A stretch of 64,000 nt of DNA, taken from NCBI GenBank assembly GCA_963665295.1, contig OY762209.1:4992001-5056000 (forward strand). The letters run 5' to 3'. Of the stretch, positions 49,255-51,549 are shown piece by piece. The position numbers and the translations under genes were made by a program. Every line of letters starts with the position of its first letter. Position 1 is the stretch's first letter. Origin of the DNA: Syntrophorhabdaceae bacterium (GTDB taxonomy: Bacteria; Desulfobacterota; Syntrophorhabdia; Syntrophorhabdales; Syntrophorhabdaceae). The notes beneath the pieces are model-generated. The model was given only the letters and a program-made list of their open reading frames with translations, did not search any database and was not told the DNA's origin.

Positions 49255-51549
49255 CTAATCCCACCTCATGGCCTTCTTGATGCCTTCCAGGTTGACTGAA
49301 TCAAGAAATCCGGACTTTGTCTCATAGAGTCTCTTCAACTCGTCTTCCGAAACCCTGGAAGTGTTCGTGATCTTTTCCGCCCCGCCCCCATTCTTCCACG
49401 CCGCTTCCCACAGCCTCGCCACCAATGCCACTGCCTCCGCCATGGCCTGCTGGTACCCGGCGCCGTATGTTTTCCACAACACGTCACAGCGGGCGCGTTT
49501 GTTCATGCGCACGAGTTCTTCGTAATCCTTCGCAATACTGATAGGATTGGCATGTTTCCTCACCGTGTCGCGCATGAGGGCCACAGTGGCCGCGGCCGCG
49601 TCCTTCGGCTTTTCGATCATGCTCATCTCGACAGGCAGGTCGGAGTCGGTCATATTCTCCAAAATATCAGGCAGATTCCTTTTCAAGGTTTCGGCATAGT
49701 ATTCGACCATCTCGTTGTCGAACTCGGCATGAACGCCGTCGGCGATAGAGACCTTCTTTTCCTTATTGCCGCTCATAACGATCTTCGTCCGTCCGCCGGG
49801 ATCGCCGTGGTGCATGTAGCTTATGTGGAGAGGCATGCACGCGTCAAAGACATAATGGGTCATTATACCGGCGGCGCAGATAAACCCGCTTGCATCCCCT
49901 GTACCCGCGTAGCCGACCATGGCATCGTATATCTGGGCCACTCTGAAAGGCAATGTGCCTTTTTCCTTCGCCCCCACTCCCTTGTAGTAATTCACCCACA
50001 CGTCGGGATCGATATTGGCCGGCTCATCACACAGGTCGAGGAGGGTCCGGTTATTGTCGTTCGGGTTCGGCTGGTCCATATCCGCAAAATGGTTCGGCTC
50101 CTCTTTGCCCCGCTTGTAGTCTCCGCCGCGGCTCTTCCAGACCAGGTCAGGCACGTCCGAGAGGGGGACGAAGGGCGCCTTGCTCAAACCTTTCGTCGCC
50201 TTGACAGGGGTCTCTCCAAGGGGCATGCTGAAAAGACCGGTGTTATTCTCCATCAACCTTCTGAGGGGTTCATCCTTTACCATACCCGCACACAGGCTCG
50301 GCAACACAATATGGGCGTAAGCGCCGAAATACCTGTCATAGCCGGTATTCCAATCACTCACCAGTTCAACGTCAAGGAACCTGCACACGGTTCCCAGGTT
50401 TGTCACCAGGCCGTAGGGCTGTTCGGAATCTCCACTCTCGTCCTTCTGACCGCCCCAGAGTACGCCGATGGCTTTCATGTGCTCCCTGCTCCCGGGATCG
50501 TCGATCACCAGTAATGTGCCGGAATCTCCGTTCCTTGGCGCAAAGGGCGCCCCCTTCTTATATCCCTTTCCGGCGCGGGGGCCTACGAGATAATCCGCCA
50601 CATAATCATATCCCCCGGCTGAGGCGTACCTGTAAAAAAGGGCGACTATTTCGCCTTTCATCACGCCGGACGCGCATCCGTACCCGAAAACAGGGCAACC
50701 GGCAAGCTTGAGGGATAATGTATCATGGTTCAGGTCCACCATGCCTTTCACCTTGCCAAGGCCATAGATCTGAGAGGTCACTCCGCCGAGATCACTCAAT
50801 TCCACGAGGCCGATATCGAGGTTGACATAGGAATGTCTTCCCGGAAGACCCTCATAAACATCGGAAAACGCCGTCTTCTGAAGCTGCTTCCGCGAAGAAA
50901 TCCCGATCTCTACCTCATTACCGTTTTTCAATGTAAAAAGGCTCTCCCCCGGCCGCCCCGTCACGTGGGCGTTGGTCAATCCATAGGTAATCCTGCCGTC
51001 GCTTACGAGGCATCCCAGCGTCGCCCAGCGCTCTTGGCCCTGTATCCTGGTCATGAGAGGATAGCCGCCCCCGATCACGCTGCCGGGATATTTCATCTTT
51101 GCGATTGCGCCCGAACCCTTGTGTTGCCATGCGGCCTTTATCACGCACACGGGGATTTCCCTGCCATCAGGGAGATAGAGCGCCTCGGGAAGATAATCGT
51201 TTCGTGAAGGCCCGGTCTCCTTGCCGAAATCTGCGTCGTCAACCCAATTGTCCACAAACACCAGCACGCAGGGCCACGAATAGGCTTGTACTTCGGAATT
51301 TTCAAGAGTCCTCGGGGCCTTGGCCGTTACGCCCTTCTTGCGGACGCGGTATTTGCCTATTGCCGTGCCCACCACGTTGGTTTTCCGTGTAAGGAAGACA
51401 TGATAGGCGTCACGCGCCTCGAGAAGGTCTCTTACGGAAAGGGATTGGTATGTCTTTCCTTGTTCAAGATAAGTAACCAGGGCAGGTGGTATCCGGTTCC
51501 TTTGCGTCTTTCCATTCCTGTCAATGTCAACCTTCTTTGAAGACGTCAT
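49255..51549 (-). CDS. NAL1-like trypsin-family serine protease fused to a Zn-dependent P1-nuclease/phospholipase C-like domain
   Basis: GTAIG..VLVFV..LP; triad LTNAHV / DIG / GDSG; C-terminal FGAYAH, NHFADMD, HYVFDACMPLH, VHAEFD. Confidence 0.75.
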   Translation of the reverse strand: MTSSKKVDIDRNGKTQRNRIPPALVTYLEQGKTYQSLSVRDLLEARDAYHVFLTRKTNVVGTAIGKYRVRKKGVTAKAPRTLENSEVQAYSWPCVLVFVDNWVDDADFGKETGPSRNDYLPEALYLPDGREIPVCVIKAAWQHKGSGAIAKMKYPGSVIGGGYPLMTRIQGQERWATLGCLVSDGRITYGLTNAHVTGRPGESLFTLKNGNEVEIGISSRKQLQKTAFSDVYEGLPGRHSYVNLDIGLVELSDLGGVTSQIYGLGKVKGMVDLNHDTLSLKLAGCPVFGYGCASGVMKGEIVALFYRYASAGGYDYVADYLVGPRAGKGYKKGAPFAPRNGDSGTLLVIDDPGSREHMKAIGVLWGGQKDESGDSEQPYGLVTNLGTVCRFLDVELVSDWNTGYDRYFGAYAHIVLPSLCAGMVKDEPLRRLMENNTGLFSMPLGETPVKATKGLSKAPFVPLSDVPDLVWKSRGGDYKRGKEEPNHFADMDQPNPNDNNRTLLDLCDEPANIDPDVWVNYYKGVGAKEKGTLPFRVAQIYDAMVGYAGTGDASGFICAAGIMTHYVFDACMPLHISYMHHGDPGGRTKIVMSGNKEKKVSIADGVHAEFDNEMVEYYAETLKRNLPDILENMTDSDLPVEMSMIEKPKDAAAATVALMRDTVRKHANPISIAKDYEELVRMNKRARCDVLWKTYGAGYQQAMAEAVALVARLWEAAWKNGGGAEKITNTSRVSEDELKRLYETKSGFLDSVNLEGIKKAMRWD

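Follow-up and report, generated by a model that had tools for sequence, protein, structure and literature searches.

A NAL1-type protease fused to an S1/P1-nuclease-fold domain: a candidate self-activating proenzyme from a Syntrophorhabdaceae bacterium

Can a protease, fused in front of an enzyme that needs a free amino terminus, act as that enzyme's removable propeptide? The question is raised by a gene on the reverse strand of a 64,000-nucleotide stretch of DNA from a Syntrophorhabdaceae bacterium (contig OY762209.1; hereafter the window), whose open reading frame (ORF), uninterrupted over 764 codons at window positions 49255-51549 (-) by ORF list and translation, couples a module akin to the rice protein NAL1 with a domain akin to S1/P1 nucleases and zinc-dependent phospholipases C (Zn-PLCs). 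An earlier interpretation made from the letters alone (the sequence-only reading) had described the product as a possible zymogen activated by its own protease; every motif that it named is present in the translation, and the FGAYAH motif, from which it dated the start of the second domain, begins at Phe408, with the codon at 50328 as it claimed. Here we examine the two halves and the junction between them, and propose that the NAL1-type protease cuts its own chain to activate a zinc phosphodiesterase, an explanation to which, taken as a whole, we assign a probability of roughly 0.55.

Two enzyme folds in a single chain

A full-length AlphaFold2 model built from a 30-sequence alignment has a mean predicted local distance difference test score (pLDDT) of 85.5 and a predicted template-modelling score (pTM) of 0.55, with pLDDT values below 50 only at residues 1-31 and 405-408. 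Aligned with VIA-align, model residues 26-404 lie on residues 81-451 of NAL1 (Z 35.8, root-mean-square deviation 3.3 over 335 residues, ~23% identity), followed by the alpha-lytic protease group at Z ~18 over residues 157-399, and Foldseek returns the NAL1 match at an E-value (E) of 5.5e-21. At the level of sequence, Pfam Nal1_C (PF25819) matches residues 191-370 with 39.5 bits, the cut-off being 26.1 (E 4.9e-10), the only solved structures detected are rice NAL1 chains (best E 5.9e-5), and Pfam NAL1_N gives no match to the window protein at E ≤ 1. The NAL1-like character that the sequence-only reading had read from GTAIG (residues 61-65) and PCVLVFV (residues 93-99) is in keeping with both the Nal1_C score and the VIA-align result, and by the model residues 26-404 are a NAL1-family protease that includes the N-terminal segment. 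The His/Asp/Ser triad described as intact is so throughout the 234 full-length homologues on which all our conservation counts are based, with a single departure at the aspartate (Table 1).

The C-terminal domain, modelled separately as residues 400-764, is predicted with higher confidence (AlphaFold2; pLDDT 91.9, pTM 0.92). Against 48,161 representatives, VIA-align finds exactly six matches at Z ≥ 5, namely S1 nuclease (5fb9, Z 18.7), SmNuc1 (8qjl, 17.6), AtBFN2 (3w52, 17.3), the Bacillus cereus phospholipase C (PLC; 1ah7, 17.0), the Listeria PLC (8cqm, 17.0) and alpha-toxin (1olp, 16.1), with the next match at Z 4.4. In line with this, the top 36 Foldseek ranks belong without exception to S1/P1 nucleases, Zn-PLCs and alpha-toxins, at a best E of just 1.9e-3. 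The P1-nuclease/PLC assignment made from motifs is upheld by the model, in which the domain adopts the all-helical S1/P1-nuclease/Zn-PLC fold.

To which of the two families the domain is closer can be judged from its sequence relatives. At E ≤ 0.1, S1-P1_nuclease (PF02265) matches 48 of 48 family C-domains (best E 1.4e-8) and Zn_dep_PLPC (PF00882) 44 of the same 48 (best E 4.9e-6); PF02265 is precomputed on some homologues and PF00882 on one, and PF00882 matches neither the window protein at E ≤ 1 nor its C-domain at E ≤ 0.1. A profile of the 48 C-domains detects S1/P1 nucleases only among PDB chains (3w52, E 0.009). In a weak first stretch of the HMMER alignment the family's W-G-x-x-G-H motif is placed over the motifs that open two nuclease chains at residue 1, 'WGKEGH' and 'WGAQGH', and the main stretch aligns H-x3-D-x5-H and H-x3-E/D with the nuclease motifs, so that positions 408/413, 565/569/575 and 607/611 are covered residue by residue. 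Because the S1-P1_nuclease matches are both more numerous and better, and because the W-to-His spacing of +5 is of the nuclease type, we place the domain between the two families on sequence grounds, leaning to the nucleases.

The putative active site is preserved as well. The motifs HFAD (487-490), HYVFDACMPLH (565-575) and HAEFD (607-611) supply most of the proposed zinc ligands; positions 468 and 487 are presumably ligands as well, an assignment that we make by motif and assumed numbering. His413, Asp468 and His487 are invariant, His565, Asp569, His575 and His607 are found in 232-233 of the homologues, and position 611 is Glu in 195 and Asp in 38, so that each of the nine expected metal-ligand positions (408, 413, 468, 487, 565, 569, 575, 607 and 611) is kept in 232-234 of the 234 sequences.

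Position 408 itself deserves particular attention. All listed alignments to nucleases and PLCs, from both models, start at residue 408 (409 for 8cqm) on the first listed residue of the matched chain, and the residue paired with Phe408 is numbered 1 in 3w52, 1ah7, 1olp and 1ak0. It is numbered 21 in 5fb9 and 27 in 8qjl, which we take to be precursor numbering. Phe408 is, in other words, the structural equivalent of the first listed residue of these enzymes, situated inside a longer chain. A hydrophobic N-terminal run of the kind expected of a signal sequence is present in none of the 234 members, as the sequence-only reading had noted for the window protein.

The junction and a proposed self-cleavage

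S1/P1 nucleases are secreted proteins, and removal of a signal peptide or propeptide exposes their Trp1. How could the equivalent residue of a signal-less fusion come to head a chain? The protease half ends in a near-invariant Trp400-Asn401 pair, from which residue 408 is separated by a spacer of exactly six residues in 230 of the 234 homologues, and residues 405-408 are the sole internal low-confidence stretch of the full-length model (pLDDT < 50). Residue 407, immediately ahead of the proposed new terminus, is Tyr, Phe or Trp in 179 of the 234 sequences, and mostly Thr or Ser in the others. Predicted docking of residues 32-402 against 403-764 gives a median score of 0.16 against a mark of 0.32, which counts neither way.

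The residue class at 407 varies in step with the residue at position 367, just past the invariant Trp365-Gly366 pair. Among 273 sequences, Gly367 accompanies an aromatic residue 407 in 202 of 210 cases and a Thr, Ser, Val or Ile at 407 in 4 of 60. On a FastTree phylogeny of the 234 full-length sequences the residue-407 class changes nine times, and in eight independent contrasts Gly367 changes in the same direction in six, in the opposite direction in none, and is unchanged in two (sign test, p ~0.03); the non-aromatic residue has nine separate lineages, and in seven of them position 367 is not Gly. A control over all variable columns ranks position 367 best of 717 (score 6; next best 4). Positions 338 and 368 are also among the 18 columns that score 3 or more, and under an assumed chymotrypsin numbering 338 would be the counterpart of residue ~190, while 365-368 would fall on the 214-217 strand; these two elements form walls of the S1 pocket. 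Three of the 18 top columns fall within 13 tested pocket columns (hypergeometric p 0.003), a set that was chosen after the ranking had been seen.

A separate observation concerns the window protein's own clade (33 sequences in the tree), where Phe408 in place of Trp goes together with Pro338 in place of Thr in 32 of 33 members; since this is a single clade, it counts as a single event. The sequence pairing could possibly reflect a co-adaptation of the P1' pocket.

Experimental precedent comes from the Listeria phospholipase PC-PLC (LmPC-PLC) which, according to the excerpted text of its report (PMC10576769), is made as an inactive proenzyme, loses activity when a single extra residue precedes W1, and tolerates W1F as the sole active substitution of that residue. 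The W/F-only variation at position 408 agrees with this last result, and the inactivity of the N-terminally blocked enzyme (PMC10576769, in extract), together with the alignment of Phe408 to residue 1, lends substance to the requirement for a free residue 1 that the sequence-only reading had invoked. Because the fixed spacer, the low-confidence 405-408 stretch, the 407/367 covariation and the LmPC-PLC precedent all point the same way, self-cleavage is our best reading of the junction, and a cut by the protein's own protease at Tyr407|Phe408 is probable. The cleavage predicted just before FGAYAH has in this manner gained indirect backing, from the covariation, the spacer and the obligatory fusion, and the cut itself retains the standing of a proposal.

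We therefore propose the following model. The gene product would be a cytoplasmic single-chain proenzyme, whose tail (residues 393-407) would fold back so that Tyr407 enters the protease's own S1 pocket. The chain would be cut between Tyr407 and Phe408, either in cis or between the subunits of an oligomer, and the freed alpha-amino terminus of Phe408 would become a metal ligand. The amino and carbonyl groups of residue 1, the His at +5 and seven further His, Asp or Glu residues could then hold three metal ions, and the 357-residue C-domain would act as a phosphodiesterase only after the cut. As to its substrate, we consider a nuclease or nucleotide phosphodiesterase more likely than a phospholipase C, by better than two to one.

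Gene, family and genomic surroundings

The coordinates of the gene and its features are collected in Table 1. Homologue alignments span 96-97% of the 764-residue protein and begin at about residue 26-34 of that form, which is why we regard it as the real product; the window's own gene call (P0002, 629 residues) has an internal start, and a 135-residue protein from another assembly (P0230) shares the N-terminus and then runs into a frameshift, with one G lost near 51187 (codon 122), so that the gene is divided there into ORFs of 135 and 629 residues. Read-derived contigs carry the intact frame in three of four public runs and a 1-nucleotide deletion in the fourth (X3) at ~6x depth, which may reflect either an error at low depth or an infrequent allele that is broken.

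Table 1. Features of the fusion gene and its product, with window coordinates
Feature	Window position	Strand	Basis
Whole gene, 764-residue precursor	49255..51549	(-)	ORF list and translation; stop codon 49255-49257
NAL1-type module, residues 26-404: N-terminal domain and predicted chymotrypsin-fold serine protease	50338..51474	(-)	VIA-align, Foldseek, Pfam Nal1_C
Catalytic His195 (LTNAHV)	50965..50967	(-)	His in 234/234 homologues; aligned with NAL1 'LTNHHV'
Catalytic Asp245 (NLDIG)	50815..50817	(-)	Asp in 233/234; aligned with the NAL1 motif
Catalytic Ser343 (GDSG)	50521..50523	(-)	Ser in 234/234; aligned with NAL1 'GDSGS'
Gly367, proposed S1-pocket wall residue covarying with 407	50449..50451	(-)	Contrasts on tree; assumed chymotrypsin numbering
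Protease tail, residues 393-407: Trp400-Asn401 anchor, six-residue spacer, Tyr407 as proposed P1	50329..50373	(-)	Conservation, pLDDT
Phe408, proposed new N-terminus after cleavage	50326..50328	(-)	Trp in 202, Phe in 32 of 234 homologues
Predicted S1/P1-nuclease/Zn-PLC-fold domain, residues 408-764	49258..50328	(-)	AlphaFold2 model, VIA-align, Pfam
Span with proposed zinc ligands His413, Asp468, His487, His565, Asp569, His575, His607, Asp611	49717..50313	(-)	Conservation, HMMER
Shine-Dalgarno GGAG, inside AAAGGAGAG	51559..51562	(-)	Sequence read; 9 nucleotides ahead of ATG 51549
Sigma-70-like promoter match TTGACA-17 nucleotides-GAGAAT	51761..51789	(-)	Consensus scan 10/12; ~210 nucleotides upstream of start

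The fusion gene is single-copy in its source genome and stands alone. A MATE transporter gene converges on it at a distance of 27 nucleotides, and pcnB, encoding a poly(A) polymerase, and a flavin adenine dinucleotide (FAD)-dependent gene precede it on the same strand. The sigma-70-like site, a candidate promoter by pattern match alone, sits within the 304-nucleotide gap after pcnB, and the leader of ~200 nucleotides between that site and the start codon (51550-51760, (-)) holds a weak hairpin and a T-rich site at 51676-51663; an Rfam scan of 49100-51900 gave no match at E ≤ 1, which leaves the leader without a known RNA family.

The sequence-detectable family is sizeable. Of 8000 candidates scored in a word-indexed search, 521 proteins reached E ≤ 0.001, and among the 120 matches listed most are ~730-820 residues long with a query coverage of 93-100%, seven being shorter or of lower coverage. 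An exhaustive search of 50%-identity representatives yielded 1003 matches at E ≤ 0.001, 620 at 1e-10 and 255 at 1e-30, the last being clusters that span many soil phyla. Relatives occur in Acidobacteriota, Alphaproteobacteria (Bradyrhizobium, Rhizobium, Mesorhizobium, Devosia), Gemmatimonadota, Chloroflexota, Actinomycetota, Planctomycetota, Verrucomicrobiota, Myxococcota and others. In a collection of one genome per species, 295 of 374 pattern-matched stretches encode a relative, the closest (66% identity) from a Desulfomonilia metagenome-assembled genome. Source annotations read 'hypothetical protein' almost throughout, with 'Nal1 C-terminal domain-containing protein' and, once, 'S1/P1 Nuclease' besides, and no NCBIfam family matches. 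The limited literature collection that we searched yielded no paper on a fusion of a NAL1-type protease to an S1/P1-fold domain.

Within this breadth, the distribution of the fusion is very patchy. When a model from the PADLOC library was used as a probe, the source genome was the sole match among 301 genomes sampled from the window's phylum, and in another phylum sample, built around a genome known to carry the gene (G316), 2 of 401 genomes matched, the sample centre being one of them and the other carrying a ~780-residue protein of the same family type. Five of 72,556 plasmid records, all megaplasmids or chromids, hold a homologue (in four pieces in one, H1, and in two pieces in another, H5), and none was found in the 50,697 phage records searched. 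Of the 154 shorter matches to the C-domain, 120 were listed, and we examined 22 of these; all 22 begin inside the fused sequence, none is a stand-alone C-domain, and such matches look like fragments or broken genes. Two variants depart from the common architecture: a 583-residue protein (P0261) in which DUF4062 is followed by a NAL1-like protease with no zinc-hydrolase domain, and a 906-residue protein (P0189) in which the protease and part of the C-domain precede a C-terminal methyltransferase domain. By its sequence, the NAL1-like protease module may lend itself to fusion with other partners.

The sequence-only reading had gone on to suggest a one-gene defence or cell-death module, and proposed looking for defence islands around the homologues. 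The surroundings lend this no support. Our context set comprises the 66 of 80 fetched loci at which a crude ORF caller found the gene, with 454 neighbours, and no neighbouring family recurs in more than 4 of the 66. At E ≤ 1e-5, 12 of 136 neighbour proteins (two ORFs per side at 34 loci; they were picked by order of id out of 212 such proteins around 53 loci, once a size limit had been applied) match PADLOC models, mostly generic helicases, kinases, cyclases and AAA+ proteins, and the window's ordinary metabolic genes do so at the same rate (2 of 23). With no conserved neighbour, a PADLOC rate at background and no phage copies, the module claim finds no footing in the gene's company.

Hints toward defence are limited to two. 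The PADLOC model PDLC03017 ('trypsin-like', 611 positions, in a library that provides neither cut-off nor description for it) matches residues 79-744 at E 1.8e-28, and also each half alone (N-terminal half, E 8.6e-19; C-terminal half, E 2.1e-8), from which it follows that some defence system or candidate already catalogued contains a relative with the same two domains. The source system of the model was not found in the literature searched, and the 301- and 401-genome samples gave same-family proteins only. The other hint is a plasmid locus. On the conjugative plasmid p1 of Sphingobium fuliginis (locus L086, 4780-14068), one flank of the homologue is annotated with an anti-phage dGTPase and a ParDE toxin-antitoxin pair, and the other carries a CYTH-domain gene and a Tn7-like TniQ/TniB/transposase module. 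A Ralstonia megaplasmid copy has ordinary neighbours.

An insertion or island at the window locus was also considered and is unsupported by synteny across 21 relatives and at four pcnB loci: PcnB is conserved in 14 of the 21 relatives, the neighbouring MATE transporter has no match above 30% identity in any of them (weak matches in 7 of 21), and nothing downstream of pcnB in four genomes (G001, G313, G306, G302) matches the window genes. Two further observations concern the neighbourhood itself. PcnB (51854-53275, (-)) terminates in a segment rich in Arg and Lys and then nine consecutive Ala, and the opposite strand of the same GC-rich stretch shows several long spurious ORFs. A 400-residue ORF at 46176-47378 (-), overlapped by long alternative ORFs on the other strand, has a weak lipoprotein-signal match and ~200 residues of tandem Gln/Pro-rich 'GPQQQPGR(Q/G)PQV' repeats; its N-terminal part has a 34%-identical match beside pcnB in a genome of the same genus.

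Competing readings and known systems

Several points weigh against the proposed self-activation, in whole or in part. Because Foldseek gave no match of the C-domain to the PDB at E ≤ 0.001, the fold is settled by VIA-align, and the window protein itself scores 18.0 bits (19.9 bits for the C-domain) against PF02265, below the cut-off of 29.5. The covariation was traced on a FastTree phylogeny only, the mapping of 338 and 367/368 to the pocket depends on an assumed chymotrypsin numbering and a set fixed post hoc, and a rank test of all 13 pocket columns is not significant (Mann-Whitney p 0.12). Gly367 is retained in two of the nine non-aromatic lineages, and Ala367 occurs in 8 of the 210 sequences with an aromatic residue 407. 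If it activated itself constitutively, a cytoplasmic nuclease should be toxic to its cell, and neither the 66-locus neighbourhoods nor the domain variants revealed a sensor domain or partner able to time the cut. Finally, since the PADLOC rate among neighbours matches that of the window's ordinary genes, the context does not indicate defence. Our suggestion of a self-contained stress or conflict effector gated by proteolysis is a guess, with odds at best somewhat below even. Its boldest form, which we consider unlikely, is a sensor-less one-protein suicide switch in which a cytoplasmic trinuclear-zinc nuclease would be held inactive by the peptide bond that joins its residue 1 to a NAL1-type cage protease and released by one triggered self-cut, with a phage protein, DNA damage or oligomerization conceivably making the protease competent, and with plant NAL1 descended from a bacterial conflict module.

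The same absence of a sensor domain, partner gene or conserved neighbour would suit an enzyme that cleaves itself constitutively, the protease being a built-in maturation device in place of signal peptidase. Methionine aminopeptidase is not known to expose a Trp or Phe, and such a device would provide a tolerated cytoplasmic nuclease, nucleotidase or cyclic-nucleotide phosphodiesterase for turnover or salvage. The metabolic neighbours in the window and the fixed spacer, well suited to rapid cis-cleavage on folding, fit this proposal, as does the SmNuc1 relative that, by the title of its PDB entry (9emg), cleaves c-di-GMP. The patchy distribution (1 of 301 genomes; 2 of 401 including the sample centre), however, fits an accessory gene better than a housekeeping one, broken copies exist (two of the five plasmid records and the 1-nucleotide deletion in one run), each half is recognised by a PADLOC model, and on one plasmid the gene has an anti-phage dGTPase, a toxin-antitoxin pair and a transposon for neighbours; we regard constitutive maturation, too, as unlikely. 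A question of substrate only, and compatible with cleavage, is whether the mature C-domain would instead be a zinc phospholipase C that attacks its own membrane from inside. The PLCs trail S1 nuclease by little in VIA-align, Zn_dep_PLPC matches most family C-domains, with one precomputed PF00882 annotation besides, and the HFxDxD motif, in our assessment, resembles the PLC version. Against this stand the more complete and stronger S1-P1_nuclease matches, a profile that retrieves nucleases alone from the PDB, and a W-to-His spacing shared with 'WGKEGH' and 'WGAQGH', the PLC spacing being W1...H14. A lipase is on balance the less probable product, with a chance that is small without being slight.

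Could the protein be an effector arm of a multigene defence system, of the NLR/CARD type or another, cut by a partner protease encoded elsewhere? The PDLC03017 match would accommodate such a role, yet no neighbour family occurs in more than 4 of the 66 loci, the protein's own triad is conserved throughout and the genome holds a single copy, so that we rate it as very improbable. Neither partner nor cut would be needed if the protease degraded other proteins and the C-domain, left uncleaved, served as a two-metal enzyme, bound nucleic acid or lipid, or acted in targeting. Plant NAL1 is indeed described as a cage-forming protease that acts on other proteins (PMC12012508, in extract), and Caulobacter LypC is reported to need its protease serine and to dispense with its nuclease residues (PMC13236601, in extract). 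The near-complete conservation of the metal-ligand positions, the restriction of position 408 to Trp or Phe, the 407/367 covariation, unexpected of a junction that never enters an active site, and the loss of LmPC-PLC activity upon N-terminal extension (PMC10576769, in extract) nevertheless make this a distinctly improbable account of the family. We consequently retain the self-cut at Tyr407|Phe408 as the reading that best accommodates the conserved junction.

What would follow if the self-cut is real? The fusion would represent a compact route to a cytoplasmic form of an enzyme class that depends on an unblocked Trp or Phe at its amino terminus and that, to our knowledge, is otherwise known only as secreted proteins. 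It would also be a third, mechanistically distinct example of protease-gated nucleases in bacteria, one where unmasking makes a metal ligand rather than removing a lid. Finally, NAL1, a plant yield protein, would gain numerous bacterial relatives whose substrate, their own tail, can be tested, which could help define NAL1 specificity.

Among the systems to which the fusion can be compared, rice NAL1 (7y77, 8pmg/8pmi/8pmm, 8has-8hau) shares the N-domain, the chymotrypsin fold and the His/Asp/Ser motifs of the N-terminal half, and differs in having no zinc-hydrolase domain after the protease; the extract of its report describes activity on other proteins inside a hexameric cage of two stacked trimers (PMC12012508). 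The S1/P1 nucleases (S1, 5fb9; P1, 1ak0; AtBFN2, 3w52; SmNuc1, 8qjl; PF02265) share the fold of the other half (Z 16.0-18.7 over 227-238 residues), the starting W-G-x-x-G-H, H-x3-D-x5-H and H-x3-D/E. Sequence identity to them is just 10-15%, however, the motif of the fusion lies 407 residues inside a cytoplasmic protein, and its C-domain has extra C-terminal helices (~727-764) and a beta-hairpin insert (588-601). The best-documented precedent for the switch is Listeria PC-PLC (PlcB, 8cqm), which has the same fold as the C-domain (Z 17.0) and, in the extract of its report, is matured by a protease that removes its propeptide (PMC10576769). That protease, Mpl, is a separate secreted metalloprotease and the propeptide has 26 residues, whereas the 'propeptide' of the fusion would be a 407-residue serine protease in the same chain, inside the cell.

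Closer in logic are the metallo-beta-lactamase (MBL) pro-nucleases of Hachiman, AVAST, Lamassu and DRT, which, according to the extract of Tuck et al. 2025 (PMC12799240), are kept inactive until cut by a chymotrypsin-fold protease. There the pro-nuclease is always a separate gene, upstream of that of the protease, internal loops are cut, and the protease is sensor-fused and activated by oligomerization (PMC12799240, in extract); the fusion, by comparison, has a P1/PLC rather than an MBL fold, one chain and no sensor, and its proposed unmasking would make a metal-binding N-terminus. CARD-NLR-like operons combine a CARD-protease with an NLR-like ATPase, neither of which recurs in the 66 loci, the window neighbours being the MATE transporter and PcnB. 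The alphavirus capsid protease, a chymotrypsin-fold enzyme, cuts itself once, at the C-terminal end and behind an aromatic residue that remains in the S1 pocket; unlike the fusion, it is viral, releases structural proteins and activates no enzyme. The endonucleases Dns, EndA and NucA differ in fold from P1/PLC. It is with these that the authors of the report on Caulobacter LypC, from the CARD-NLR-like operon lypABC, align its nuclease; as excerpted, the report describes a single polypeptide, as in the fusion, in which a trypsin-like serine peptidase at the N-terminus is joined by a flexible linker to a nuclease domain whose residues are dispensable, and which works with LypA and LypB (PMC13236601). 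Viewed against all of these, the fusion is a variant of known proteolytically activated phosphodiesterases, distinctive in its single self-contained chain and in a proposed activation that would create a metal-binding N-terminus.

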